A stretch of DNA of 29,932 nt from a virus (Duplodnaviria > Heunggongvirae > Uroviricota > Caudoviricetes), in the IMG/VR virus record IMGVR_UViG_640753024_000007, positions 1 through 29,932 of that record. One strand, 5' to 3'. Shown here in pieces: positions 6,233 through 28,754 of this stretch. The position numbers and the translations under genes were made by a program. The notes below the pieces were generated by a model. That model ran no database searches. It was given only the letters and a program-made list of their open reading frames with translations, and had not been told where the DNA came from. How positions within the stretch are numbered: position 1 is the first letter of the stretch; the number at the start of each line of letters is the position of its first letter.

Positions 6233-6517
6233 ATGGCAAAATTTACAGTCAGGATCGAACTTCGCGATTCCAGTTCCGCTGATTACGATAAGCTTCATGA
6301 ACGAATGGAAGCAAAGGGATTCTCCAGAACGATTACAACCTCTTTAGGGAACACCTACCGTCTTCCTAATGCCGAATATATATATTCAAGCAAGAATGAA
6401 GACAAAGAATCTGTTGCTGACCTTGCTGAATCAGTGGCCTCAAAAGTTAAGAAAAATCCCGGTGTTCTTGTTACCGAATCTAATGGGCGCTATGTAAAAA
6501 ACTTAGATGATGCTTAA
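6233..6517 (+). CDS. Hypothetical protein (94 aa)
   Basis: GGAGGA RBS 4 nt before ATG 6233; charged, Lys/Glu-rich soluble protein. Confidence 0.6.
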   Translation: MAKFTVRIELRDSSSADYDKLHERMEAKGFSRTITTSLGNTYRLPNAEYIYSSKNEDKESVADLAESVASKVKKNPGVLVTESNGRYVKNLDDA

Positions 6518-11070: not shown

Positions 11071-11625
11071 TCAATTATCTAAAATTGTGCTAAATCTTTT
11101 TATTACCATTAAGAACGTTATAACAGTGATAAAAAAGGATGTATAGGCTAAAAAGCTAACAATATATGCAGGTGCGCGAAAATACCATTTCATTAAATCC
11201 ACTGCATTGTCAGGCAGGAAATATATTATCACTGAAAATATAACCAATACTATTGAAGTTAATATTGCATAAGCGACGTTGTGGCATAACTGCTCATATA
11301 TGGTTTTGTTAGTGTTTAATGATATCAATTTGTCTCGGGATTTGTTTCCTTCAATTATGTCTGATATCTTAGTGATGGTTTTTTGTTTTTGTTCATAAAT
11401 CATTATTACTGCACTCATTAATAGTGCTGTTGTAATAGCCCCGAAGTTAACGAAGACGGAAGCAATTGCCGGTTTCATTATTCCGTATGTCCGGCACAGA
11501 ACGAAAGAAAGAGATAACGGAACAATAAAATGTACGATAATGTCGCTCATCAACATTGTTCCACGCTGATCTGACATTGTTTTGTAGTGTTTTATTATTA
11601 CACCCAGCACATTTATTTTATTCAT
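11071..11625 (-). CDS. Four-TM small membrane protein, candidate effector of a two-gene module
   Basis: 184-aa ORF with four hydrophobic helices; its ATG overlaps the stop of the upstream 310-aa gene (ATGA); very AT-rich. Confidence 0.65.
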   Translation of the reverse strand: MNKINVLGVIIKHYKTMSDQRGTMLMSDIIVHFIVPLSLSFVLCRTYGIMKPAIASVFVNFGAITTALLMSAVIMIYEQKQKTITKISDIIEGNKSRDKLISLNTNKTIYEQLCHNVAYAILTSIVLVIFSVIIYFLPDNAVDLMKWYFRAPAYIVSFLAYTSFFITVITFLMVIKRFSTILDN

Positions 11626-12554
11626 ATAATCACCCCTTTGTTTCCGCTATGCAGTTCTAACAATATATCATTAGAAAGGTTTTTTATCGTGTCATGAAGT
11701 GCTGTTAGATCAGGTATGCCTGTTAATGGGTCGATTTTTAAATCATTATCATCTAACTCTGCAGAAATTCCTTTTTTTAGTATAGTCTCATAATTGAAAA
11801 CGACAGTCCGACTGCCGAGTTGTAAGCTTACTTTTATTGCATCACATTTATCTTCAATAATCTCAATGATGTTTCCTATATTCTTGTTTCTTAAATCCCT
11901 GAAACTTCCGAACATGCCATCGTTTGCTTTTATTATTAAGTCTGTCTTGATGTTTGTTTTGTTTTGACCAAAGGAATCAGCAATGTCTTTTGGTGCTTTA
12001 TATCCTTGAGCCTTAATTTGTTTTAATTCGGAATTGAGAATATATTGAGGGATTTTCTTATGATGTAATGGATTGATTCTTGCTTCGAGTTGAAATTTGT
12101 TTTTTAGATATTCAGTGATAGAATCAGAAAGGACACCTCGGGCAGAAATATTATCGCAAGAGTGGAATGCAATAATTCCTTCTTCAAGGGCGTCTGGTAG
12201 GTATATTAAAATATAACGTTCTTTGAGTGTTACATCATAAGCAGTTGTCCTGTAGTGGATTTTTTTGAGTTTTACATCTTTTATTTCACTGCTTTCTCCA
12301 TATTTCCCAACTTTTATATAACCATATATAATTTTCTTTGAGTTATCAAAGTGAAGTTTAGCGTGTTGTTCCAGAGATATTTTAGTTTTGGATACGCCAA
12401 ACTCGATGGGGGTGTTTTTATATAGAGTAAAATAATCAACAAAAAGTTCATATGCCGTTTTTTTATTACTTAAACCCAATTCATTAAGTTTTTTGCTGGC
12501 TCGACTGCCTTTATGGGTCAATACGCGGAATGAATAGAAATTAACGCTGTGCAT
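11622..12554 (-). CDS. 310-aa soluble protein of unknown function, candidate sensor/partner of the membrane protein
   Basis: AAAGGA RBS; Lys/Ile/Asn-rich, AT-rich composition unlike the flanking prophage genes. Confidence 0.65.
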   Translation of the reverse strand: MHSVNFYSFRVLTHKGSRASKKLNELGLSNKKTAYELFVDYFTLYKNTPIEFGVSKTKISLEQHAKLHFDNSKKIIYGYIKVGKYGESSEIKDVKLKKIHYRTTAYDVTLKERYILIYLPDALEEGIIAFHSCDNISARGVLSDSITEYLKNKFQLEARINPLHHKKIPQYILNSELKQIKAQGYKAPKDIADSFGQNKTNIKTDLIIKANDGMFGSFRDLRNKNIGNIIEIIEDKCDAIKVSLQLGSRTVVFNYETILKKGISAELDDNDLKIDPLTGIPDLTALHDTIKNLSNDILLELHSGNKGVII

Positions 12555-15012: not shown

Positions 15013-15372
15013 ATGCGTATAGAGTTTGTTTTGCCTTACCCGCCGACGGTGAACACCTACTGGCGTCGTCGTGGCAGCACATATTTTGTTTCAAAAGCCG
15101 GTGAGCGTTATCGCCGTGATGTGGCGCTAATTGTTCGCCAGCAGCGACTGAAATTAAACCTGTCCGGAAGGCTGGCGATAAAGATTATTGCAGAGCCGCC
15201 GGATAAGCGCCGTCGTGACTTGGACAATATTCTGAAAGCACCACTGGATGCACTGACACATGCGGGGTTGCTTATCGACGACGAGCAGTTTGATGAAATC
15301 AATATTGTGCGCGGACTGCCTGTTCCTGGTGGTCGGTTGGGGATAAAAATCACAGAGCTGGAGTGCGCATGA
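15013..15372 (+). CDS. rusA: Holliday junction resolvase RusA
   Basis: 119 aa; the motif DKRRRDLDNILKAPLDALTHAGLLIDD matches the RusA catalytic region. Confidence 0.9.
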   Translation: MRIEFVLPYPPTVNTYWRRRGSTYFVSKAGERYRRDVALIVRQQRLKLNLSGRLAIKIIAEPPDKRRRDLDNILKAPLDALTHAGLLIDDEQFDEINIVRGLPVPGGRLGIKITELECA

Positions 15373-16058
15373 ATAACCAGTATTTACAGTTTGTTCGTGA
15401 GCAGCTCATTATCGCCACCGCTGATTTGAGTGGGGCAACAAAAGGTCAGCTTGAAGCCTGGCAAGAGAATGCCATGTTCGATACAGGGCGTTACAGGCGT
15501 AAAAAAATCCGGTACCGCGATGAAGTGACTGGAAAAATGATAACGCGGGATAATCCACCAATCCCGGGAAAGCAATCGCTGGCGAAAGGTTCATCAATTG
15601 CCCTGGTCAGTCCGGTTGAGTTTTCGACATCATCATGGCGACGCGCCGTTCTGTCTCTTGAAGAGCATCAGAAGGCGTGGGTGCTGTGGGTATACAGTGA
15701 AAATCCGAGTTGGGATTATCAGGTGGTCATTGCGAAATGGGCGTGGGATAAGTTTCAGGTGCATTTTGGCACCAGAAAAATTACAGGGAAAACGCTTGAG
15801 CGTCTGAAGAAATTAATCTGGCTGGCGGCGCAGGATGTCAGGGGGAGGATTACTGGGCGTGACGTCTACCAGCGACAGGAACTTGCCAGACTGTGTGGAG
15901 TTAAGCCTGACAACTGGAGCCATAATTATGCGAACTACTGGCGTGAGATGTGCGACATTTTTAAGAAACTCGATACAGAATCCTTGATTTGCACCGTGAA
16001 AATGAGATCGCAACAAAAAGCGACCTTTTCACGACGAGATATTGCAAAAGTCAATTAA
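15369..16058 (+). CDS. Late-gene antiterminator, Q-like
   Basis: ATGA overlap with rusA; position immediately before a terminator and the late region; 229 aa. Confidence 0.65.
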   Translation: MNNQYLQFVREQLIIATADLSGATKGQLEAWQENAMFDTGRYRRKKIRYRDEVTGKMITRDNPPIPGKQSLAKGSSIALVSPVEFSTSSWRRAVLSLEEHQKAWVLWVYSENPSWDYQVVIAKWAWDKFQVHFGTRKITGKTLERLKKLIWLAAQDVRGRITGRDVYQRQELARLCGVKPDNWSHNYANYWREMCDIFKKLDTESLICTVKMRSQQKATFSRRDIAKVN

Positions 16059-16105
16059 ATCGCATACATTTTATGTAAATGTGATATTTTGCCGTATAGT
16101 GTGTA

Positions 16106-16130
16106 AACCCGCTTAAATGCGGGTTTTTTG
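16106..16130 (+). terminator. Intrinsic terminator downstream of Q
   Basis: CCCGC-ttaaat-GCGGG followed by TTTTTT. Confidence 0.7.
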
Positions 16131-16202
16131 CTTAACTCTGTGGACCTTTTTATCTGTAGTTGTAAGATATGGATATTCTTACAATTTAGGTCGGTGAGCT
16201 TA

Positions 16203-16967
16203 ATGGAAGAACAGCACGGTAATTACTTTATAAAACGAATTCAGTTGATTGGAAGAGGTGCATTTGGCTTTGTTGAACACGTTAAGGTTTACAACCTCAA
16301 CAAGGGTGAATGTGGGGATTATGCTAGAAAGGTTTTAGCCCCCGAAAAACCAGAGCTTTTGGCGCAAATAGAGCAGTTTAGAAGGCGTTTTAAAAGGGAG
16401 GTCGTGTATCAATCACATTGCGTACATAGCAATATTGTTCCTATTTATTTGTGCGATTTGTTTGCCGAGAATCCATGGTTCATTATGGATAAAGCAGAAT
16501 GTGATCTTGAGCACGAAATAACGAACAACCTTCTTACAACAGATCAAAAAATTTCAATAGTGAAAATGGTATTAGATGGTGTAGCTCACATCCATGCGAA
16601 AGGCTATTTACACAGAGATATAAAACCATTTAATGTCTTGCGATTTAGCGACGGAACATACAAGGTGTCTGATTTTGGTCTGGTAAAAGATACAAATCCC
16701 GAAGGGGATACCACTAAATTGACCGAGATCGGTACCCGTATGGGAAGTACAAGATATATGGCTCCCGAGATTTTATATAATGCCGAGTATTCAGTTAAGA
16801 CTGATGTTTATGCGGTGGGGCGGTTAATTGAGGACTTAAATTTAGATGATAAAAAAATAAAGCCTATCATAGCGAAGTGTACCAGGATGGATAAAGATGA
16901 TAGATATCAGACAATAGATGATGTGGCGTTTGATTTTGTGCATTCTTTTTTAAGGAGTGAGTCATGA
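16203..16967 (+). CDS. Hanks-type Ser/Thr protein kinase (kinase domain only)
   Basis: Gly-loop GRGAFGFV, beta3 Lys in YARKVL, catalytic loop HRDIKPFN, DFG, APE; AT-rich. Confidence 0.85.
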   Translation: MEEQHGNYFIKRIQLIGRGAFGFVEHVKVYNLNKGECGDYARKVLAPEKPELLAQIEQFRRRFKREVVYQSHCVHSNIVPIYLCDLFAENPWFIMDKAECDLEHEITNNLLTTDQKISIVKMVLDGVAHIHAKGYLHRDIKPFNVLRFSDGTYKVSDFGLVKDTNPEGDTTKLTEIGTRMGSTRYMAPEILYNAEYSVKTDVYAVGRLIEDLNLDDKKIKPIIAKCTRMDKDDRYQTIDDVAFDFVHSFLRSES

Positions 16968-17707
16968 TTCAGCTGATAGCGACTTCATCATTCTCGTATC
17001 CAAAAGAACCAGGTAGGGTCAACGAAGATTCATTGCTTCCTCCCAAAATTGTAGGGGATGGCATCTTATTTGCCGTAGCTGATGGTGTAGGTTCATACAC
17101 TGGTGCCAGTCAGGCTTCATCAATGGCAATTGCTGAGCTTTCAGCATTGACAAGCTTATCTTTTGACACAGTTCCGGATGTATTTGATGAAGTTAAGCGA
17201 AAGGTTATGTCGTTAGCTGATGTTAATGATGAGTTCGATAAAGCTGCTACTACACTTACGTTTTGTTATGTTTGTGATAGCGGAATTATTATTGGTCATA
17301 TTGGTGATTGTCGTTTGTATTGCATTGGAGAGAAGAAAGCATACCAATTGACGAAGGACGATACCAGGCATCAGATGCTAATTGATCAGAATATTTTTAA
17401 ACCCAGAGATTTGAAGGATAAACCGGGCAAAAATATCTTAACGACGGCTATAGCCTCAAATGTTGATATGGAATACGACTGTGATTTTATCACATGGAAA
17501 GATTTACCTAGTATTAACGGGGTATATCATCTGTGTATCATGTCTGATGGGGTTCATAACGTTTGGGAAAAACGCCCCAGATTTACATCAAATACGATGA
17601 GTAATAGTCAGAAGTTTTCTAATGGCATTTTGCGTCGTATAGAGAGAGCCGGACCTGATGATGACTTTTCTTTAGTAAGTATAATGGTGCGTGTGACGTC
17701 AGATTAG
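16964..17707 (+). CDS. PP2C-family (PPM) Ser/Thr phosphatase
   Basis: ATGA overlap with the kinase stop; metal-binding motifs NEDS, AVADGVGS, GDCR and SDGV. Confidence 0.8.
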   Translation: MIQLIATSSFSYPKEPGRVNEDSLLPPKIVGDGILFAVADGVGSYTGASQASSMAIAELSALTSLSFDTVPDVFDEVKRKVMSLADVNDEFDKAATTLTFCYVCDSGIIIGHIGDCRLYCIGEKKAYQLTKDDTRHQMLIDQNIFKPRDLKDKPGKNILTTAIASNVDMEYDCDFITWKDLPSINGVYHLCIMSDGVHNVWEKRPRFTSNTMSNSQKFSNGILRRIERAGPDDDFSLVSIMVRVTSD

Positions 17708-17926
17708 TTGTATAAACTCAGTAGGGAATGCTAATTTCACATACAACATAGTTAAAGAAAACTTAATTTTAATGTAAAAAGGCTGCCCTCAGGCGGTCTT
17801 TTTATGCTCGAAAATTGATGCAGTACGTTAAACGCGCTGGTGGTTGCGAATACCGTTTTTTCAGCTTGCTGGCTTTTTAGACAAGAGTTATTGGTATGTC
17901 ACGTTAACCAGAAAAGGGAAAAAGAC

Positions 17927-18124
17927 ATGCTAAAACAGCAGGATATGACCGAAACCGCCAGAGTGGTGTTTAATGAATTAAGCGTCACCGAACCGGCGAC
18001 CGTCGGGGAAATTGCGCAGAATACTTACCTTTCACGCGAACGCTGCCAGTTAATACTGACTCAGCTTGTTATGGCGGGTCTGGCAGATTATCAGTTCGGT
18101 TGTTACAGACGCCTTCCTCAGTGA
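17927..18124 (+). CDS. Small hypothetical protein (65 aa)
   Basis: AAGGGA RBS before ATG 17927; followed by a terminator. Confidence 0.5.
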   Translation: MLKQQDMTETARVVFNELSVTEPATVGEIAQNTYLSRERCQLILTQLVMAGLADYQFGCYRRLPQ

Positions 18125-18133
18125 AGGTTTTTT
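18112..18133 (+). terminator. Intrinsic terminator overlapping the stop of the small gene
   Basis: CCTTC-ctcagt-GAAGG followed by TTTTTT. Confidence 0.5.
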
Positions 18134-18274
18134 AATTTGTGGTAATGGGCGGCTGGTGGGTGTTAGCGGCACCTGCCAGCCATCTGCTCATGCGTTGGGG
18201 TCACAAGCAAACCTCAGGCCCATCTGCTTTGCGCAAAAGCGGTATGAGCCTATCAGAGAAGTGCTTATTGATCT

Positions 18275-19321
18275 ATGGTTAATACTGTAAAAATATCCAG
18301 TTGTGAGTTAATCAACGCTGATTGCCTGGAATTTATCCAGACCTTACCGGAAAACTCTGTCGACCTGATAGTCACAGACCCGCCATACTTTAAAGTGAAG
18401 CCCGAGGGTTGGGATAACCAGTGGAAGGGCGACGATGATTACCTGAAATGGCTGGATCAGTGTCTGGCGCAATTCTGGCGGGTACTGAAACCTGCCGGAA
18501 GTCTCTACCTGTTCTGTGGTCATCGCCTGGCATCTGATATCGAAATCATGATGCGTCAGCGCTTTAATGTGCTGAACCACATTATCTGGGCGAAGCCGTC
18601 CGGACGCTGGAACGGATGCAACAAGGAAAGCCTGCGGGCGTATTTCCCGGCAACAGAACGCATTCTGTTTGCAGAACATTATCAGGGGCCATACCAGCCC
18701 AAAAATGACGGCTATGCGGCAAAGGGGCGCGAGCTAAAACAGCACGTCATGGCCCCGCTGATTTCTTACTTTCGTGATGCGCGTGAATCACTGGGAATAA
18801 CGTCAAAACAGATAGCGGAAGCCACCGGAAAGAAAAACATGGCTTCGCACTGGTTTGGTACCAGTCAGTGGCAGTTACCGAACGAGGGTGATTACAACAA
18901 ATTGCAGGAGTTGTTTGCGCGTGTTGCGGCAGAAAAACATCAGCGCGGGGAACTGGAAAAGCCACACCACCAGCTGGTCAGCACATACAGTGAACTGAAC
19001 CGGCAATATGCCAGCCTGCTGGCAGAGTACAAATCTTTACGGCGTTATTTTTCCGTATCGGCTGCTGTTCCTTATACGGATGTCTGGACGTACAAGCCAG
19101 TGCAGTATTATCCGGGCAAACATCCCTGTGAAAAACCAGCGGATATGTTACGTCAGATAATTACCGCCAGCAGTCGTCCGGGAGACTTGGTTGTCGACTT
19201 TTTTATGGGGTCAGGCTCCACAATTAAAGCCGCAATGACGCTGGGGCGTCGGGCAATTGGTGTGGAACTGGAAAAAGAGAGATTTAATCAAACTGTAACT
19301 GTAATAGAAAATAATCTTTAA
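18275..19321 (+). CDS. DNA methyltransferase (beta-class amino-MTase, DPPY motif; N6-adenine or N4-cytosine)
   Basis: Motif IV LIVTDPPYF lies N-terminal to motif I DFFMGSGST (beta-class order); no adjacent restriction endonuclease. Confidence 0.85.
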   Translation: MVNTVKISSCELINADCLEFIQTLPENSVDLIVTDPPYFKVKPEGWDNQWKGDDDYLKWLDQCLAQFWRVLKPAGSLYLFCGHRLASDIEIMMRQRFNVLNHIIWAKPSGRWNGCNKESLRAYFPATERILFAEHYQGPYQPKNDGYAAKGRELKQHVMAPLISYFRDARESLGITSKQIAEATGKKNMASHWFGTSQWQLPNEGDYNKLQELFARVAAEKHQRGELEKPHHQLVSTYSELNRQYASLLAEYKSLRRYFSVSAAVPYTDVWTYKPVQYYPGKHPCEKPADMLRQIITASSRPGDLVVDFFMGSGSTIKAAMTLGRRAIGVELEKERFNQTVTVIENNL

Positions 19322-19385
19322 ACACGCTTTCTTTTATTTATTAATTATTGAAACAATAAAAACATATGAGTATATATTACAAATA

Positions 19386-19487: not shown

Positions 19488-19563
<76 letters not shown>

Positions 19564-19566
19564 TAT

Positions 19567-19641
<75 letters not shown>

Positions 19642-20781: not shown

Positions 20782-20821
20782 GGGCCGCTGGTGGCCTTTT
20801 TTAATTTACAGGAGAAAAAGT

Positions 20822-21172
20822 ATGTCTGAACCCTTATCCGGTTCCGGCACAGCTGCTGCGCTCGGTGGGGCGACTGTTTTCGGGCTGTTTACCGGAACGG
20901 ATTTCGGGATTGTGTTTGGCGCATTTGCGGGGGCGTTGTTTGTTGCAACGATACCGCAGGCGCTTTCAGCATGGCGGGTGAAGGGGCTGCTGCATCACGG
21001 TCTGAAACTGAACCGTCTGGCTGAACGGGCGGCGCAGGATCTGTCATTCATGGAGCCGCCTCCCGCGCAGCCGGAAGAAAAAATCAGTTTAAGTATGCCG
21101 GGCGCAAAAGCACCGGAGACACCCCGTAAGAAAATACCGCTGCATATGAGGCTTGCAGGAGTGAGACGATGA
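20822..21172 (+). CDS. Hypothetical protein (117 aa) with N-terminal glycine-zipper hydrophobic segment; translationally coupled to gpW
   Basis: AGGAGA RBS; ATGA overlap with the W-like gene; occupies the position where lambda terminase large subunit would end. Confidence 0.5.
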   Translation: MSEPLSGSGTAAALGGATVFGLFTGTDFGIVFGAFAGALFVATIPQALSAWRVKGLLHHGLKLNRLAERAAQDLSFMEPPPAQPEEKISLSMPGAKAPETPRKKIPLHMRLAGVRR

Positions 21173-21420
21173 TGAATCCCCCCGGCGTGTTTGCCGGAAT
21201 GTCAAAAGAACAACTGAAGGCGGCACTGAATGAAGCTCAGGCGGCCTATATTGAGCTGCTTTCAGGGCGGCGTGGCGTGAGTTTCTCCTATGCACAGGGA
21301 GACGGCACGCGCACCGTGACTTATTCACAGGCCAGCAGTGCTGATTTGCTGGCGCTGATCGCGACGCTCCAGCGGGCGCTGGGGATAAGGACGAGAAGGT
21401 CTCTGAGCGTGCGTTACTGA
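21169..21420 (+). CDS. Head-tail joining protein, lambda gpW-like
   Basis: 83 aa; immediately precedes the portal gene; charged N-terminal helix and a GDGTRTVTYS segment recall lambda W. Confidence 0.6.
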   Translation: MMNPPGVFAGMSKEQLKAALNEAQAAYIELLSGRRGVSFSYAQGDGTRTVTYSQASSADLLALIATLQRALGIRTRRSLSVRY

Positions 21421-21428
21421 GGTGAGCG

Positions 21429-22511
21429 ATGATAGTCGATAAAAATGGCAGACCTTTTCCGCAACAGACGGAAAAAAAACGCGCACTGAATGACAGCGGG
21501 CGGATCCCCTACGACTCTGCCGGTTTCTCGCACGGTTCGGTGGTGGGCTGGAACCCGGTACTGTGGTCACCGGACAATGAAGTGAATATCTGGCGTAACC
21601 GTATGGTTGCCAGAATGCGCGACCTTGTCCGCAATGACGGCTGGGCGAATGGCAGTATCACCCGTCTGCTGGACAATGCCATGGGGGTGGTTTTTCGCCC
21701 GAGGATGAAGCCTGACTACCGGATGCTGGCAGAGATGACCGGCAACCGGGCATTTGATGCAGACTGGGCGGATGAGTACGGGCGCTGTGTGGAGGCACAC
21801 TGGCGCAACTGGGCCAGTGATGCCGGGTGTTACTGCGACCTTGAACGCAGACAGACCCTGCCGCAGCTTTTCCGGCTGGCATTCCGCCACAAGATGATCG
21901 ACGGCGATGCGCTGGCGGTCATCCACTGGCGACCGGACAGAATAGCCCCTGGTCGCGGGCGTTACGGTACGGTGGTACAGGTGATTGACCCCGACCGGCT
22001 GAGTAACCCGAACGATGCGTTTGACATGCCGCATATTCGTGGCGGTGTGGAAATTGACGCGGACGGGGTGCCGGTAGCCTATCACATCCGGTCCGCACAC
22101 ATGGGGGACTGGTGGAGCGGCAGTGACACGATGCACTGGGAACGCGTGCCGCGTGAAACGTCGTGGGGAAGGCCGGTGGTGGTGCATGACTTTGATCATG
22201 ACCGTGCGGGCCAGCATCGTGGTGTCGGTATTCTCAATCCCGTGGTTCAGCGTCTGAAAATGCTTATCAAGTACGACCAGGTGGAGCTGGAAGCCGCCAT
22301 CATCAATGCCATGTTCGGTTTTTTCATCACGTCGCCCTATGACCCGAAACTGACAGAAGATCTGATGAGTGACGCGGAGGTGATTAATGGCTACCAGGAT
22401 GCGCGCATGAAGTATCACGATACTAACCGGATTTCGATGTCGGGCGTGCGTATTCCCATCACGTTCCCCGGCGAAGAGCCAAAAGCCGTGAGCGCCGCCC
22501 GACCGAGGTGA
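21429..22511 (+). pseudogene. Portal protein (lambda gpB-like), 3'-truncated by deletion
   Basis: 360 aa versus about 530 for lambda B; recalled B motifs conserved (VRNDGWANG, CYCDLERRQT, DRLSNPN); ORF terminates where capsid-E homology begins in another frame. Confidence 0.75.
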
Positions 22512-22942
22512 TTTTCACGCCGTCAGCCTGGACAGCGTTCATGAACGACAGTTTCATTCGTGAGAACGCCATCAACATGCCCGCCCTGAACCCGACCAGC
22601 AACGTGGTGAACCCGGGGACGCAGATCAACACCGGTGCGGTGTACAAGGGCAGGTGGGGGAACTTCAACCTCTGGCTGTATAACGACTGGTTCATCGATC
22701 CGGATGACGGAACCGAAAAACCGATGCTGGATGACGGCAACGTCATTCTGACCGGGGCGGCCCTGATGGGGACCCGCGCGTTCGGCTGTATCATGGATCC
22801 GGCGTTTAATTACGGCCAGATGGCCTATGCCCCGAAAATGTGGGATCAGCAGGATCCGGCACAGCGTTTCCTGATGATGCAGTCGGCACCGATTGTCATC
22901 CCGTCCCGTGTCAATGCGTGCCTGTGCGCGTCGGTGGTGTGA
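22508..22942 (+). pseudogene. Major capsid protein (lambda gpE-like), C-terminal third only
   Basis: VIFTPSAWTAF, GTRAFGCIMD and FLMMQSAPIV resemble the C-terminal part of lambda E as I recall it; no N-terminal two-thirds present. Confidence 0.7.
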
Positions 22943-22943
22943 G

Positions 22944-23129
22944 ATGGCGTCCGGCAAAAAGGGCGCGCCGGTTGACTATGTTGTGCTGCGCGGTTGTGTG
23001 CAGCACAACGGACAACGGGTGGCGCAGGGTAATGTGATCACCCTGAGCGAAAGCGAGGCGCAGCGTCTTCTGCGTCTGGGGGTGATTGTTCCACTGGCGG
23101 AGATGAAGGGTGATGGCCGGACCGGTTGA
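22944..23129 (+). CDS. Small head-associated protein (61 aa), function unknown
   Basis: Lies between the capsid and FII-like genes; weak GGTG RBS. Confidence 0.4.
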   Translation: MASGKKGAPVDYVVLRGCVQHNGQRVAQGNVITLSESEAQRLLRLGVIVPLAEMKGDGRTG

Positions 23130-23445
23130 CTGGGACAAAAATCTGTTGTCCCCGTTGTTCGGGGTGTTTGGTGAGGAATGCGAACACCGCCCGCGTGGCG
23201 GTGAGGCGTACCGGCTGACCGGGATTTTTGACCGGGCGTACACGCAGCAGCTTGTCGGCGAGGACGGGGGCACGGAATCAAACTCCACGCTGCCCGTGCT
23301 GGGCGTGCGGGATGCGGCGTGTCGCGTGAAGCCGAAGCAGGGCGATATTTTCCTCATCGTGCGCACGGGGGAGCTGTATATCGTGCGGGATGTGCAACCG
23401 GACAGCCACGGCGGCACGCGACTTGAACTGAACAGGGTGAAGTGA
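23113..23445 (+). CDS. Head-tail connector, lambda gpFII-like
   Basis: GIFDRAY...RVKPKQGDIFLIVRTGELYIVRDVQPDSHGGTRLEL parallels the recalled lambda FII (GVFDDPEN...RRGDTLTIGEENFWVDRVSPDDGGSCHLWL). Confidence 0.6.
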   Translation: MAGPVDWDKNLLSPLFGVFGEECEHRPRGGEAYRLTGIFDRAYTQQLVGEDGGTESNSTLPVLGVRDAACRVKPKQGDIFLIVRTGELYIVRDVQPDSHGGTRLELNRVK

Positions 23446-23564
23446 TGAATACCGCAGAAGCCAGAAAAATTGTCACCCGGGCACTGAACGACTGTTCCGG
23501 TTTTGGCGGTCGGGTGTATTCCCCGCGCACCCTGCCGGTGATGCCGGACCAGTACAGGGGCTGA
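23445..23564 (+). pseudogene. 39-aa remnant, probable 5' fragment of a tail gene
   Basis: ATGA overlap with the FII-like stop; ORF stops after 39 codons where a baseplate-protein remnant begins in another frame. Confidence 0.35.
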
Positions 23565-23593
23565 GCAGTGCCACGGCGGCACTGAAGGCACGG

Positions 23594-23791
23594 GTGGAGA
23601 GTGCCATCAGCGAGGTGCTGTACAACGTGGGTGAACCGGACGGCAGCGGGGTGATTCACCTTTCAGACCTCTGGTACGCCATTGCGGACACAGAGGGGAC
23701 AGACGGGTTCATTCTGGTGTCTCCTGACAGCAACATCACGCTGTCGCAGGGAGAGCTGCCGGTGACCGGAACGATAACCTGGGCAACATGA
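23594..23791 (+). pseudogene. C-terminal remnant of a baseplate J-like protein (Mu gp47 / P2 gpJ family)
   Basis: No start codon upstream in frame; ATGA overlap with the downstream gp48-like gene, the Mu-type baseplate/tail-fiber gene order. Confidence 0.45.
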
Positions 23792-26334
23792 GGAACAGGA
23801 TGAGTCGTTTTTCACATGATGACTACACGCGCGCGATGCTGAACCTTCTGCCGTCAGGGATTGCCTGGAGCCGTCTGCCTGACAGCGTGCAGCACAGGCT
23901 GATACGCGGACTGGCACAGGCGTACCGGAAGAGTGACGCTGATGCGTGCGCACTGATAACGGGCGCCTTCCCGGAAACGGCGGATGCGCTCACTGATGAG
24001 TGGTATGCCTCGCTGGGGCTGAATGATGAATGCGGGACGCAGGCATCCACCACAGACCCGGCGCAGGCCAGAAAATTCATTCTGGCGAAACTGCTGTCGA
24101 CGGGCGGGCAGAGTGTGGCGTATTTCACGGAACTTGCGGCGACGATGGGGTACAGCATCAGTATCCGTGAGTACCGCACACCACTGTGCGGATTTTCGTG
24201 GAGCGGGCATCTGCTGAGTGACGACAACCGGTTTAACTGGACCGTGGTGGTGGCCCCGCCGGGGGATGAGGTGACCACCTCACGGGCGTACCTGGAGTGC
24301 CTGTTTCGTCGTTATGCCCCGGCGCATACGCTGGTGACGTTTGAGTGGCAGTCATCGTACAGCGCCGCCCTGAGCATTGCGTGGGACAACATCACACACG
24401 TTCTTTCCGGTGCGCTCACGGCAGATGAGGGGGTGGTGGTGTCGGGGGTGACGGTGAATGTTGTCATCAAATCCGCGTCGGGACAGCGGTATGTGGCGAC
24501 AGTGACAACGGACAGTGAAGGGCACTGGTCGTATGAAATGGAGGATGATGATTTTGCAAACGGCTGGTACAGCAGCACGGCTTACAACGACCTGGTCAGA
24601 CTACGTCAACTTCCGGCGGGACAAAAATCCTGTAGCTACCTTGCGAGTAATACCCCCAGTCTGGTGAGTATTGACAGCGGCGCATTCCGTTTTTGCAAAA
24701 ACGCTACGGCATTCGACAGTGCATTTTACCGGTGTAAAGGACTGACTGCGATACCTCCGGGGCTGTTTGCTGAGTGCGCCAGCGCCACGACGTTCTATCA
24801 GGCATTTTACGAATGTACGGGACTCACTGCAGTCGGTGACAGCGCGTTTGCCGGCTGCACAGGCGTAACGACTTTTCGTCAGGCGTTTTACGGCTGTACC
24901 GGGCTGAGAGCGGTGGGTGAGAGCGTGTTTGCCGGGTGCACCGGTGCCACGACGTTTGAGGATACCTTTTATGGTTGTACCGGACTGAGCACGGTGGGTA
25001 ACAGCGTGTTTGCCGGATGTGCCAGTGCCACAACGTTTTTGCAGGCCTTTTATGGCTGCCAGGCGCTGACATCATTAGGTCAGGGGATATTTGCAGACTG
25101 CACCGGGGTGACGACATTCCTCCAGGCTTTTTATAACTGCAGGGGACTGACGGCATTGCCGGAAGGGATGTTTGACAGCTGCACTGCCGTGACCACGTTC
25201 AGTAATGCCTTTTATGGCTGCACGGCTCTGACAGCAATACCGGAAGGGTTGTTTGACAGTTGTACCGGGGTGACGACATTCAACCGGACGTTTTATGGCT
25301 GCGCGGCCCTGACAGCGATACCGGCAAAATTGTTCGCAAACTGCACAGAGGTTGCGACGTTTGAGGGGGTGTTTTCGGGATGCTCGGGGCTGGTAACGAT
25401 ACCGGCAGGGTTATTTGAAAAACTCACCAGTGTCACGACGTTTGACAGCGCGTTTTACGGGTGCAGGGCACTGACAACAGTGGGTGACAGAGTATTTGCT
25501 GGTTGTACAGGTACCACAACATTCGCAAGCGTATTTGAAGGTTGCACCGGACTGGTCACGATACCGGCTGACGTGTTTGCTGGTTGTTCGGGTGTCAGAT
25601 CGTTTTACCGGTCGTTTTTTGGGTGTACAGGACTGGCAATGGTCCCCCCGGAATTGTTTGCAGATTGTACCGGAGCCACGACGTTCTATACGACATTTTA
25701 CCGTTGTACCCGTCTGTCGGAAGTTCCTGCAGAGTTGTTTTCCGGTTGTACCGGAGCAAAGTCTTTCTATAAGACTTTTGGCGAATGTACCGGGTTGTCG
25801 GAGGTACCGGCCAGATTATTTGCAGATTGCACCGGTGCCACGACGTTTGAGGGGGTGTTTTCGGGATGCCGGGGGCTGACAACGATACCTGCAGGGTTGT
25901 TCGCTAACAGCGCCAGTGTCACCACTTTCTTTCAGGCGTTTTACGAATGCACGGGCCTGACCGCGATACCGTCAGGATTGTTTGCAGACTGTGTAAGTGT
26001 GACAACCTTCAGGCAGACCTTTTACGGTTGTTCCGGGCTGAGATCGATGGGCGACGGCGTGTTTGCGGGGTGCGCCAGTGCGACGACGTTTGAGGGCACC
26101 TTTTACGGTTGCACAGGGCTGGAAAGTGATGTGAATGACATCCTCCCGGCGGAGGAGTACCCGCAAATAACCAGTGTGTACAGTTGTTTTTACAACTGCC
26201 GCTCATTGCAGGGAAGCGGATGTGCGCTCATTGAGAAGTTGCCTGGCGTGACGAGTTACGCGGATGCGTTTTATAACTGCGTATCCCTGAGCGATTTCAG
26301 GACCTTGTCTGAGCGTTATCCAGTCTGGGTTTAA
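23788..26334 (+). CDS. Tail protein: N-terminal Mu gp48/YmfQ-like domain (DUF2313) fused to about 19 tandem 27-aa Cys-containing LRR-like repeats
   Basis: N-terminus DDYTRAMLNLLPSGIAWSR typical of the gp48/YmfQ family; repeats of consensus AFYGCTGLTAIPxGLFAxCTGVTTFxx from about residue 295 to 790. Confidence 0.75.
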   Translation: MRNRMSRFSHDDYTRAMLNLLPSGIAWSRLPDSVQHRLIRGLAQAYRKSDADACALITGAFPETADALTDEWYASLGLNDECGTQASTTDPAQARKFILAKLLSTGGQSVAYFTELAATMGYSISIREYRTPLCGFSWSGHLLSDDNRFNWTVVVAPPGDEVTTSRAYLECLFRRYAPAHTLVTFEWQSSYSAALSIAWDNITHVLSGALTADEGVVVSGVTVNVVIKSASGQRYVATVTTDSEGHWSYEMEDDDFANGWYSSTAYNDLVRLRQLPAGQKSCSYLASNTPSLVSIDSGAFRFCKNATAFDSAFYRCKGLTAIPPGLFAECASATTFYQAFYECTGLTAVGDSAFAGCTGVTTFRQAFYGCTGLRAVGESVFAGCTGATTFEDTFYGCTGLSTVGNSVFAGCASATTFLQAFYGCQALTSLGQGIFADCTGVTTFLQAFYNCRGLTALPEGMFDSCTAVTTFSNAFYGCTALTAIPEGLFDSCTGVTTFNRTFYGCAALTAIPAKLFANCTEVATFEGVFSGCSGLVTIPAGLFEKLTSVTTFDSAFYGCRALTTVGDRVFAGCTGTTTFASVFEGCTGLVTIPADVFAGCSGVRSFYRSFFGCTGLAMVPPELFADCTGATTFYTTFYRCTRLSEVPAELFSGCTGAKSFYKTFGECTGLSEVPARLFADCTGATTFEGVFSGCRGLTTIPAGLFANSASVTTFFQAFYECTGLTAIPSGLFADCVSVTTFRQTFYGCSGLRSMGDGVFAGCASATTFEGTFYGCTGLESDVNDILPAEEYPQITSVYSCFYNCRSLQGSGCALIEKLPGVTSYADAFYNCVSLSDFRTLSERYPVWV
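24670..26160 (+). repeat. In-frame 81-bp tandem repeat array (about 19 units) inside the tail protein gene
   Basis: Periodic recurrence of ...TTTTA(C/T)GG(C/T)TG(C/T)AC(C/G)GG... every 81 nt; translated repeats each carry two Cys. Confidence 0.8.
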
Positions 26335-26380
26335 TAACAGGAGGATCCCGCCGCTCCGGTGGCGGGGTAAGGAGATATGC

Positions 26381-27172
26381 GTGAAGAAAATATCTGATAT
26401 CACACCGTATGTTGATGAAAACGACGAGTTTACTGACGGCGCGCCTGCCACAGGGCTGAAGCCTACGCCGTTGCTGGCGGCGTGGTTTAACGTCATTCAG
26501 CGGGAGCTGGTGAAGGTTGTGGAGAGTGCGGGGCTGACGCTGGATCCGACTGATGACACACAACTCTGGCAGGCGTTATCGAAATACTTTGCCTCACAGG
26601 AGAATGTGAACACCGCCATGGGTGCTCTGGGTACGATGGCCGGTCAGAACAGTGATGCGGTGGAAATCACCGGCGGCGCGATAACAGGGACATCCCTCAC
26701 TGGCGATCTGACGGGCAATGCGGATACAGCCACAAAACTGAAAACGGGCCGGACAATCCAGGTAAATCTTGGCAGTACGGGTGCAGTTACTTTTGATGGC
26801 AGTGCGAATGTCACGCCGGGCGTGACCGGCACATTGCCGGTGAGCAGTGGTGGTACCGGGGCCACCACTGCGTCAGGGGCCAGAACAAATCTGGGGCTGG
26901 GAGATGTGGCAACCCAGAATCTGAGTACGCTCGATGCCCGTTACCTGCTGACGACGGGCGGTGTGTCGGCAGTGAGACTGAGTAGCGCCAGCTCATACAC
27001 GCCTTCCGGTAACGAGGTGTCGTGGACCAGTAATCTCTCCTACGGAAATGTGCTCACAGGGATTATTGTTCAGGAAACGGGATCAAATTCAGCAGATAAC
27101 ATTGGCGGAATTTATTACAGGCAGATTCAGTACTGCATAAACGGTACATGGATAAATGCGGTATCACTGTAA
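26381..27172 (+). CDS. Tail fiber protein (short, Gly/Thr-rich)
   Basis: GTG start with TAAGGAGA RBS; GTSLTGDLTGNADTATKL-type fiber repeats; followed by a tail fiber assembly gene. Confidence 0.75.
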   Translation: MKKISDITPYVDENDEFTDGAPATGLKPTPLLAAWFNVIQRELVKVVESAGLTLDPTDDTQLWQALSKYFASQENVNTAMGALGTMAGQNSDAVEITGGAITGTSLTGDLTGNADTATKLKTGRTIQVNLGSTGAVTFDGSANVTPGVTGTLPVSSGGTGATTASGARTNLGLGDVATQNLSTLDARYLLTTGGVSAVRLSSASSYTPSGNEVSWTSNLSYGNVLTGIIVQETGSNSADNIGGIYYRQIQYCINGTWINAVSL

Positions 27173-27184
27173 AGGAGAGCACTA

Positions 27185-27724
27185 ATGATAAACATCAAAA
27201 ATTTCAGGCAATACACCCCGGAAAACCCGCCCGTGGCGTGGGCGACATATCTCATCAGCGAGGATGGTCAGGACTGGTATGAATGCCAGACGCAGTTTGC
27301 AGAGGATACATACAAAGTTGCGTACGACAGTGACGGTATCGTGCGCAGTATTTCGACCGATGTGTCGGCACTTTGTCCTGTCAGTCTGAGTGTTGCTGAG
27401 GTTGAGTCGCTGCCGGACGGTGCGGATATCGACGGCAATTGGGTGTTTGACGGGGAGAGTGTGGTTGCGCGGACGCTGACGGCAGCGGAGTGGCAGGCAA
27501 GGGCGGAATCGCAACGAAGCGCATTGATATCGGATGCGAAGGAGAGAATCAGCCTCTGGCAGTCAGAGCTTCTGCTGGACATCATCACTAATTATGACAA
27601 GGAAAGCCTGACGGAATGGCTGGCTTACATAAAGGCGCTTCAGGCGCTGGATTTAAGTGGTGTGACGGATGAGGCGAGCTACAACGCGACAGTCTGGCCG
27701 GACGAACCTAGAGTCACGTCATAA
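27185..27724 (+). CDS. Tail fiber assembly protein (Tfa)
   Basis: 179 aa; position after the tail fiber gene; Tfa-like N-terminus with YTPENPPVAW. Confidence 0.8.
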   Translation: MINIKNFRQYTPENPPVAWATYLISEDGQDWYECQTQFAEDTYKVAYDSDGIVRSISTDVSALCPVSLSVAEVESLPDGADIDGNWVFDGESVVARTLTAAEWQARAESQRSALISDAKERISLWQSELLLDIITNYDKESLTEWLAYIKALQALDLSGVTDEASYNATVWPDEPRVTS

Positions 27725-27963
27725 AGGCTACTGAGAAGCTTTTTTGCTTCAGTGAAACAAAATATTGGCTACTGTAGCATCGTGTTTAAAGAAAACCGGC
27801 ATGGTTCATGCCGGTTATATCAAAGTACGATATAAAATAAGTATAAAAGGATTTCAGGAGAGACAAACTAACAAAAAGGCATATTTGAATCAAATATATG
27901 CCTGTGTATTGTTATTAATTTATCGTTTCGTGATTTTTTATGACCTATTTATACATATAAGAG

Positions 27964-28754
27964 TTAACTTTGACTCTCAGTGTGTTTTTGTAACCATTTT
28001 TTTATTATGGTATTTACTTCTTTTGCATGTGTGACATTCAATGCATGATTGGCGTCAGGTATAATCGCAAGCTCAGAGTGCGGGATCATTTTGTGCATTT
28101 CAAGAGCTTTCTCCGGTGGTATTCCTGTATCGACGGATCCATGAAGAATCAGGGTGGGCGCTTTGATCGTATGAACTTTATCTGAAATATCGTCTCGCTC
28201 CAGCATTGCATTCATAGCTGGTTTGATGTTTTCAGGTTTATGACGTAGCCATACTTGTCTCCATATCTCTGCTTCAGAGATATTCTTTCCAAAGAAAACG
28301 GGTAATAATGAGGATATTATCTCTTCTTTTATGAGTGAGTTATGCCATCCATTACATAGTTCCATATAACTGGATGCAATTTCTGGCGGGTCCTGCTCGA
28401 CCTGAGTTGCCATAAGGATTAGTCCTGACAAACGCTCTGGATGTGACAGGGCAAATCGTAATGATATATACCCCCCCATCGACATCCCCCCCCTAAAATA
28501 AACTTATCCAGTTGTAGTGAGTCTGCGACGTTTAAAATGTCATCAACGATGTCATAGAGCGAGAATGGCTCAGTTTTTTCGGAGGGGGCATCGAAACCCC
28601 GAACATTAATGCAAACAACTCTATGTTTTTCTTTTAGTTCGTCAAACTGGTATTTGAACATTTCATTATTCATGAAAAATCCATGAACGAATATGGTAGG
28701 GGGATTGTTTTTATTTGTTTCAGTGTATCCAGAGTCAGTAAACGTAAAATTCAT
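27964..28754 (-). pseudogene. Alpha/beta-fold hydrolase interrupted by a frameshift in a poly-G tract at the nucleophile elbow
   Basis: Two overlapping minus-strand ORFs (28419..28754 N-part, 27964..28485 C-part); G-M-S-M-G-G nucleophile motif, HGSVD and ANHAL present; frames joined by changing the 8-G run at 28486-28493 to 9 or 6. Confidence 0.7.

Follow-up and report, generated by a model that had tools for sequence, protein, structure and literature searches.

Introduction

Kinase-based phage defence is known from few systems, namely Stk2, PD-T4-6, and the three-gene KKP module. In this work, we describe a pair of genes that encode a Hanks-type Ser/Thr protein kinase and a PP2C Ser/Thr phosphatase in the IMG/VR virus record IMGVR_UViG_640753024_000007 (positions 1 to 29,932; this whole stretch of 29,932 nucleotides is referred to as the window). 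The pair is located at positions 16203-17707 and forms a conserved, horizontally mobile, and obligately paired unit that has intact catalytic sites and is under purifying selection. The two-gene form is, as a system, not described in the literature searched, in which no publication deals with a two-gene kinase-PP2C phage cassette (the search was limited by subscription-only papers). The genes themselves are already annotated, and PGAP names both of them generically.

The KKP module (PfpC-PfkB-PfkA) has been reported in Pf6 and in over 1,200 further prophages (Guo et al., Nat Commun 2024, PMC11341870). The PF13672 phosphatase PfpC comes first in this module and is followed by PfkB, which has an FHA domain, and PfkA, which bears a cold-shock domain (CSD). 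Toxicity requires both kinases together with the FHA domain and the CSD, and the phosphatase acts as the antidote (PMC11341870). The module gives protection against lytic phages, with binding of T4 Gp59 to the phosphatase as the trigger; it also controls Pf prophage production through the silencer MvaU (PMC11341870). The search filter of its authors consisted of three genes with the phosphatase first, FHA and CSD domains, and genes of 900-1300 bp (PMC11341870).

The pair was compared with KKP by architecture and shared Pfam families. Both have Hanks kinase(s) and a PF13672 PP2C in one operon on temperate phages or mobile elements of Gram-negative bacteria. The pair has two genes with the kinase first, an order that is kept in all 80 related loci, whereas KKP has three genes with the phosphatase first. 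The KKP kinases are 300-430 amino acids (aa) long with FHA or CSD domains, whereas the window kinase is 254 aa long with no extra domain. The pair therefore falls outside the filter of the KKP authors in gene number and order, accessory domains, and gene length, and shares with KKP the PF13672 family and the prophage or mobile-element location. Since the pair has no second kinase, FHA domain, or CSD, we class it as a two-gene variant of prophage kinase-phosphatase modules. The KKP precedent makes a toxin/antidote or exclusion function more plausible, and by this analogy the functional proposal of an earlier first-pass annotation of the window, a signalling-based exclusion module, appears reasonable. 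We regard it as evenly balanced whether the pair is a minimal phospho-switch, in which a two-gene 'KP' cassette would act as toxin and antidote, in abortive infection, or in exclusion.

The first-pass annotation also cited Stk of phage 933W and staphylococcal Stk2 as precedents for abortive infection or exclusion by a kinase. Both can be used as analogies but are not relatives of the window kinase, and Stk2, which was cited as phage-encoded, is described as host-encoded in the paper that we read. The 933W Stk is likewise a Hanks-type kinase encoded by a lambdoid Escherichia coli prophage. However, it is not of the arginine-aspartate (RD) type (HFD instead of HRD), it is encoded in the immunity region downstream of cI, and no phosphatase gene is adjacent. 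Orthology was rejected, where BLASTP aligned the 348-aa Stk at 26% identity over residues 74-245 (C-lobe) only. The window kinase matches the PADLOC profiles of mad6 (E 1e-39), PD-T4-6 (E 1e-34), and Stk2 (E 5e-28), and these matches span the catalytic core only (positions 11-201 of 327, 160-347 of 500, and 51-243 of 659, respectively). The PD-T4-6 profiles also match an ordinary kinase gene in every S. thermophilus genome examined. The kinase was not filed under PD-T4-6, mad6 (MADS), or Stk2 because the matches are core-only and the profiles are non-specific. Stk2, PD-T4-6, and Mad6 are also longer proteins with other regions and without a coupled phosphatase. The window PP2C has no significant PADLOC match (best PDC-M21C, E 0.007). 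The TerY-P triad consists of a vWA protein, a PP2C, and a Ser/Thr kinase. It was rejected as a candidate because no TerY/vWA gene is found near the window pair or among the commonest neighbours of 42 related cassettes.

The kinase and the phosphatase

The two genes of the cassette are as follows.

16203-16967, + strand: Hanks-type Ser/Thr protein kinase, kinase domain only (254 aa, 765-bp gene; Pfam Pkinase, E 2e-33)
16964-17707, + strand: PP2C (PPM) Ser/Thr phosphatase (247 aa; Pfam PP2C_2, PF13672, E 2e-14)

The kinase gene has a ribosome-binding site, GGTGAG, at 16193-16198 ahead of the ATG at 16203. A longer open reading frame (ORF) with a TTG start at 16128 was rejected because the homologues support the ATG at 16203 as the start. 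Residue conservation in both proteins was read from alignments of 34-39 family members that share 39-75% identity with the query. The invariant residues of the kinase are G17, G19, G22, K43, E66, H137-R138-D139, K141, N144, D157-F158-G159, D201, and R234, and P188 and E189 are nearly invariant. The kinase has the GxGxFG loop, HRDxKxxN at 137-144, DFG at 157-159, APE at 187-189, and the subdomain XI arginine at R234, and the Hanks-type catalytic core (PF00069) is thus complete from the Gly-rich loop through the subdomain XI Arg. The AlphaFold model has a predicted local distance difference test (pLDDT) score of 89.7, and one complete kinase domain accounts for the whole protein. The best structural matches of the model are the PknB and Stk1 kinase domains, with a template modelling (TM) score of about 0.7 to PknB. 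The sole low-confidence part is the activation loop (164-176), within which a threonine, T174, is near-invariant. RD kinases are usually switched on by phosphorylation of the activation loop. With its invariant catalytic residues and confident model, the kinase looks active.

The invariant residues of the PP2C are N20, D22, D40-G41, G114-D115, D195-G196, and D233-D234. All of the metal-binding residues (D22, D40, D115, D195, and D233/D234) are kept, and the protein has the metal-binding Asp of motifs 1, 2, 5/6, 8, and 11 together with the beta-sandwich fold of the PPM/PP2C family. The AlphaFold model (pLDDT 93.3) consists of a single complete domain with TM scores of 0.75-0.79 to Stp1, PstP, and tPphA, and Pfam gives no second domain. 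By the same two kinds of evidence, the phosphatase also looks active. The match of the PP2C to the phrog_5650 profile covers positions 273-520 of 565, as if kinase-PP2C fusions were members of that family; fused proteins were considered and rejected, with no fusion found among the listed homologues.

The start of the PP2C gene overlaps the stop of the kinase gene by ATGA (16964-16967), and a strong Shine-Dalgarno sequence, AAGGAG, is present at 16952-16957, six bases ahead of the start. The ratio of nonsynonymous to synonymous substitution rates (dN/dS) between the alleles of E. coli E24377A and ML35 is 0.04 (kinase) and 0.11 (PP2C), which indicates strong purifying selection on both genes even where the prophage is decaying. 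The Pfam search and structure prediction support the description in the first-pass annotation of a kinase-domain-only Hanks kinase with all motifs intact and a PP2C partner with an ATGA overlap. Both enzymes are active-looking with intact catalytic residues, and the claim that sensor domains are lacking also stands, with only Pkinase and PP2C_2 found by Pfam.

Housekeeping pairs of eukaryotic-like Ser/Thr kinases and phosphatases (PknB/PstP, Stk1/Stp1, and PpkA/PppA) have the same two folds and the same cognate kinase-phosphatase logic, and PknB/PstP and Stk1/Stp1 are among the best structural matches. Their kinases, however, are sensors with a membrane anchor or several domains and belong to the core genome, whereas the window pair is soluble, domain-only, mobile, and AT-rich. 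It is quite improbable that the window pair is an ordinary signalling pair or a secreted virulence kinase that is phage-borne by chance and has no role in phage conflict. The closest solved structures would fit such a pair, as would the host strain E24377A, which is an enterotoxigenic E. coli. On the other hand, no Pfam domain besides Pkinase and no membrane, PASTA, or secretion-related domain was found in the kinase by Pfam or in the model. All 80 related loci on viral contigs keep the pair, the pair is found in moron slots, and the hosts of the family differ widely in lifestyle (Vibrio, Haemophilus, Gilliamella, and Xanthomonas).

Distribution and pairing of the cassette

Protein searches returned a family of ~250-aa kinases and a family of ~245-aa PP2Cs that have the same Gammaproteobacteria range and are often on shared contigs. 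The hosts belong to Yersinia, Hafnia, Providencia, Xenorhabdus, Photorhabdus, Pseudomonas, Vibrio, Aeromonas, Haemophilus, Gilliamella, and Xanthomonas. In an exhaustive search with the PP2C as query, 19 clusters (50% identity) were obtained at E <= 1e-30, surrounded by a wider shell of small PP2Cs near 30% identity. When genome contigs were scanned with the kinase alignment, of which only generic Hanks motifs were left, all of the kinases returned were unrelated (Actinobacteria, Planctomycetes, and others).

A scan of IMG/VR yielded 80 viral contigs with kinases that are 36-100% identical to the query, which form 42 clusters at 90% kinase identity (the non-redundant cassettes). The family PP2C is directly downstream of the kinase on the same strand in 80 of the 80 contigs, and the same order is found in the gene neighbourhoods of Yersinia pseudotuberculosis, Pseudomonas putida, and Vibrio vulnificus. 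The start and stop overlap by 4 nt in 33 of the 42 non-redundant cassettes, and the spacing is between -7 and +4 nt in 38. GC is lower in each of the 42 cassettes than in its 3-kb flanks (37.5% vs 47.2%). The pairwise identities of kinase and PP2C correlate at r = 0.80, a value that was reached in 0 of 2000 permutations, and the two proteins have thus diverged in concert.

The neighbours of the 42 non-redundant cassettes were identified by a Pfam scan of two genes on each side. The upstream neighbours include Q antiterminators of three unrelated families (8 members), phage lysozyme, Rz, and DUF2514 (about 10 members), and proteins of the immunity region (HTH_3, YdaS, Peptidase_S24, P22_Cro, and CI repressor). 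The downstream neighbours include holins, lysozymes, and terminase subunits. Cronobacter phage phiES15, which was recovered by UV induction, has the order Q-kinase-PP2C-lysis. The pair is located between Rz and the small terminase in Escherichia phage Flotzy, and between Q and the lysis genes in Yersinia prophages. In P. putida, the pair is in an island that also encodes transposases, an integrase, and a protein with a PNP_UDP_1 domain. The positions on phages are typical accessory-gene slots of temperate phages.

The 1.77-kb kinase/phosphatase stretch is present in 50 of 5,426 complete E. coli genomes (about 1%), always on the chromosome, and enterotoxigenic strains are among the carriers. 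No deposited phage genome matches this stretch at high identity in a near-identity search of phage records; Flotzy and phiES15 came up only at the protein level.

Some cassettes adjoin cI, Cro, and S24 immunity genes, and the cassette is AT-rich in every host; such DNA is known as a target of xenogeneic silencers. These two observations, together with the control of Pf prophage production by KKP, would fit a regulator of lysogeny or induction of the own or co-resident prophages, acting as KKP does through MvaU. We consider this rather unlikely as the main role. Neither protein has a DNA- or nucleoid-linked domain, whereas PfkA of KKP has a CSD, and the position of the cassette is variable and includes a degraded prophage and a non-phage island. 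This role is compatible with a toxin/antidote or exclusion function and does not exclude it.

The P. putida cassettes (L005:10357-11880 and L006/L007:2995-4518) adjoin a 507-aa PNP_UDP_1 protein with a weak match to a PADLOC 'Effector' profile (E 5e-9), and this neighbour may point to a defence-island context. It is the only defence match that PADLOC gave among the cassette neighbours and the alternative cargos described below. Two other loci depart from the two-gene plan. A third ORF of 497 aa overlaps the PP2C stop by 4 bp at L111:3795-5288 (also in L112); it has no Pfam or PADLOC match and suggests a three-gene variant of the module. The most divergent locus (L168:1-2534) has a split kinase and a 366-aa PP2C with an N-terminal extension of ~130 aa, in which a weak, sub-threshold match to Effector-associated domain 1 is found.

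Position of the cassette in the prophage

The cassette and its flanks (16060-17830; 15363-19330) have 100% identity to E. coli O139:H28 E24377A (NC_009801.1), where the region is a lambdoid prophage with its integration site beside ompW. The elements around the cassette are as follows.

15363-16058, + strand: Q antiterminator gene of the phage-82-type family PF06323 (Pfam Phage_antiter_Q, E 4e-84; phrog_304, E 9e-103; annotated as Q in NC_009801.1)
16042-16094, + strand: putative late promoter PR' and Q-loading region (TTGCAA at 16042-16047, 17-nt spacer, TACATT at 16065-16070)
about 16095-17779, + strand: cargo insert (moron) between the Q-loading region and the ancestral late terminator
16105-16132, + strand: intrinsic terminator brought by the cargo (stem 16105-16126 and T-run; RNA fold -14.2 kcal/mol, z -2.1)
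17774-17805, + strand: ancestral late terminator (tR' equivalent), at the right-hand edge of the insert (RNA fold -18.3 kcal/mol, z -4.0; none of 200 shuffles was as stable)

Relatives that share Q, the TrmB-like gene, and the methylase were identified by searching the stretch from Q through the methylase against E. coli genomes. One of them, L009, is an empty site in which both flanks are joined directly, and two others, L010 and L011, have other cargo in the same slot. Homology to the cargo-free relatives stops at ~16094 and resumes at ~17780 inside the right-hand terminator, which aligns with the sole terminator of L009. The left-hand terminator is missing from L009 and is now the first terminator after PR'. 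The pair is therefore a cargo insert between the Q-loading region and the late terminator. It splits genes that are adjacent in relatives, has its own terminator, and deviates in composition (GC 0.376-0.400 across 16001-18000 vs 0.49-0.55 in the flanks). Downstream of the PP2C, the ORFs encode the TrmB-like protein and then the methylase.

These findings agree with several claims of the first-pass annotation: the position directly after Q (15363-16058) and a terminator (hairpin 16105-16126 and T-run), the AT-richness (GC ~38% vs ~50% in the flanks), and the moron interpretation, which is supported by the empty site, the other cargos, the bracketing terminators, and a position-conserved -10-like box. 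The comparison with the stx slot of lambdoid phages holds only in part. The cargo is downstream of Q, but the order in the 933W and ML35 prophages is Q, terminators, tRNAs, (stx), esterase, and holin; stx of 933W comes after the tRNA genes, whereas the window cargo precedes them and is directly after the Q-loading site. The pair resembles lambdoid morons (stx, bor, lom, and other late-region cargo) in being an insert of foreign composition with a terminator and a candidate promoter of its own. It differs from them in being a signalling enzyme pair and not a toxin or surface protein, and in its place upstream of the tRNA genes and not at the stx position.

The other cargos consist of genes of unknown function, with 75-aa and 265-aa genes at L010:1269-2300 and a 237-aa gene at L011:1222-1935. 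Each is bracketed by copies of the terminator, and neither has a PADLOC match. The gap from Q to the terminator in phage-82-type lambdoid prophages is thereby marked as a cargo hotspot with other unknown genes.

PR' was identified by reading the sequence and comparing it with L009, L010, and L011. It includes a conserved initial transcribed segment with a -10-like GATATT at 16083-16088. It fits 8 of 12 consensus positions and was missed by the consensus promoter scan. We infer its role and that of the Q-loading region (16042-16094) from position and from what is established for lambdoid PR'/qut. The lambdoid PR' is constitutive, and its transcripts end at the first terminator unless Q modifies the polymerase. 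With the cargo between the Q-loading region and the late terminator, Q read-through must therefore transcribe the pair after induction, while expression in the lysogen would depend on a promoter of the pair's own.

Transcription by Q read-through would also suit a function in late-phase host take-over, the alternative that the first-pass annotation named, in which a Q-dependent kinase would phosphorylate host proteins for virion production or lysis timing and the phosphatase would limit or reset this effect. The T7 gp0.7 kinase is known to phosphorylate host proteins. Most neighbours of the cassettes are co-directional late genes, and the locations in the Yersinia prophages, phiES15, and Flotzy agree with late expression. 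Take-over is the main rival to the phospho-switch, and we consider it unlikely. The pair is kept intact and under strong purifying selection in a prophage that is unable to make virions, and its locations also include sites next to cI/cro and an island outside phages. A terminator of its own and a conserved -10-like box come with the cassette, and a take-over kinase would have no obvious use for an obligately coupled antagonist.

Candidate promoter and inverted repeat

Two features are located between the left-hand terminator and the kinase gene.

16161-16168, + strand: -10-like box TGTAAGAT, 42 nt ahead of the kinase start, candidate cassette promoter
16160-16184, + strand: inverted repeat of 8 bp (TTGTAAGA at 16160-16167, n9, TCTTACAA at 16177-16184), which overlaps the -10-like box

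A consensus sigma-70 promoter scan identified no promoter between the left-hand terminator and the kinase (16128-16202). Boxes of the form TGTAnnnT start within -65 to -26 of the kinase in 20 of 38 non-redundant cassettes, compared with 2.2 +/- 1.4 (maximum 7) in dinucleotide shuffles. They are located at -38 to -46 in 17 of the 38, with 1 occurrence in the adjacent control window. In TGTAnnnT, the three positions that are best conserved in -10 elements are T, A, and T, with TG in front. The box accompanies the cassette in phage backgrounds that are unrelated to each other, and for this reason we interpret it as a probable -10 element of the cassette's own.

The inverted repeat noted in the first-pass annotation is present at 16160-16184, but it consists of 8 bp with a 9-nt spacer and not of 7 bp with 12 nt. 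A repeat of at least 7 bp occurs in 3.4% of shuffles of the 75-nt region, and the repeat of the window is therefore only marginally above chance (P about 0.03). The RNA fold extends the repeat to an interrupted 15-bp stem (z -1.7). Repeats of at least 7 bp are modestly enriched across the family (10 of 38 cassettes vs 4.0 +/- 1.8 expected), and their positions vary between cassettes, where the ribosome-binding site would take part in the pairing in some cases. In view of the marginal significance, the variable positions, and the fold z of -1.7, the repeat was rejected as a conserved operator or hairpin. In the ML35 allele (L173), the repeat pair 16166:16178 is changed from G:C to T:G, which keeps the pairing only if it is read as RNA (wobble). 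These changes are 2 of the 11 differences in the 144-nt leader between the window and ML35.

Kinase loss and the proposed function

Several loci have lost the kinase and not the phosphatase. A 10-bp deletion at 16334 breaks the kinase and leaves the PP2C intact in E. coli 510016 and one IMG/VR contig, and a 1-bp deletion at 16851 does the same on the ML35-type allele. The kinase ORF is also interrupted next to an intact PP2C in an unrelated cluster (L137), and the kinase is split in L168. At least three of the kinase-disrupting mutations with intact PP2C are independent, and no disrupted PP2C with an intact kinase was found among the loci examined. Kinase-only losses would be expected if the kinase did harm without the phosphatase. 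Together with the translational coupling, they are indirect hints of a logic like that of KKP and type VII toxin-antitoxin systems.

In the phospho-switch that we propose, the KP cassette would be a minimal Hanks kinase that is translationally coupled to its cognate PP2C and carried as a moron by temperate phages of Gammaproteobacteria. Both genes would be on one mRNA, made from the cassette's own promoter in the lysogen and additionally by Q-antiterminated read-through from PR' after induction. The overlapping stop and start would tie the output of the phosphatase to that of the kinase. The RD kinase and its substrates would be held dephosphorylated by the phosphatase, and the pair would be harmless at rest. 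Once the balance is tipped, the kinase would phosphorylate many host or phage proteins, and the cell would be arrested or the invader blocked. The most plausible trigger would be binding of the phosphatase by a protein of the infecting phage, in the way that T4 Gp59 binds that of KKP.

We propose somewhat more tentatively that the bare kinase and bare PP2C form a minimal toxin/antidote immune module that senses phage through phosphatase inhibition or kinase activation and arrests the cell. Temperate phages would move this module between accessory slots (downstream of Q or of the lysis genes, or next to cI) across Gammaproteobacteria, and its expression would be dual, with a low level from its own promoter in the lysogen and a high level from Q read-through.

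A number of points weigh against such a defence function. The literature searched holds no experimental work on this family. The PADLOC matches of the kinase are generic, and the PP2C has no significant match. In the window and in many phages, the cassette is co-directional within the late operon, so it would also be expressed during the lytic growth of its own carrier, which fits poorly with a suicide module. No sensor or partner-binding domain is recognisable in either protein, and KKP toxicity needs FHA and CSD domains and a second kinase (PMC11341870), none of which the pair has. The asymmetry in kinase loss (about 4 vs 0) is not statistically significant, and some of the frameshifts are from draft assemblies, in which errors may occur. 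The -10-like box is a sequence pattern and not a mapped promoter.

A two-gene cassette of catalytic domains would, if this function is true, show the minimal needs of a phospho-switch. The cassette is about 1.5 kb long and native to E. coli, and would be an easy model for the tipping of the balance, the lethal substrates, and the placement in a late operon.

Other features of the prophage

The genes of the prophage in E24377A include integrase, excisionase, exonuclease, dicB, a cI/cro-like pair, replication genes, hokD, rem, DUF968, rusA, and Q. The late region is left with only a holin, gpW, and fragments of portal, capsid, and tail genes. The prophage is therefore defective, as most of its late region has been lost. 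In the window, the late region (20800-28000) is heavily truncated with partial portal and capsid genes.

An Rfam search of the cassette leader and trailer found no known RNA family and matched only the two tRNAs, tRNA-Thr and tRNA-Gly, which are located downstream of the methylase (19488-19641). A ghoS-like antitoxin gene, apparently an orphan, is located at ~6233-6517, in a prophage that also has dicB, hokD, and rem. Two ORFs of 184 aa and 310 aa on the - strand at 11071-12554 overlap by 4 bp and are antisense to the early operon. They have no Pfam or PADLOC match, and their stretch is the most AT-rich of the window (GC 32-36%). This ORF pair resembles another two-gene cargo.

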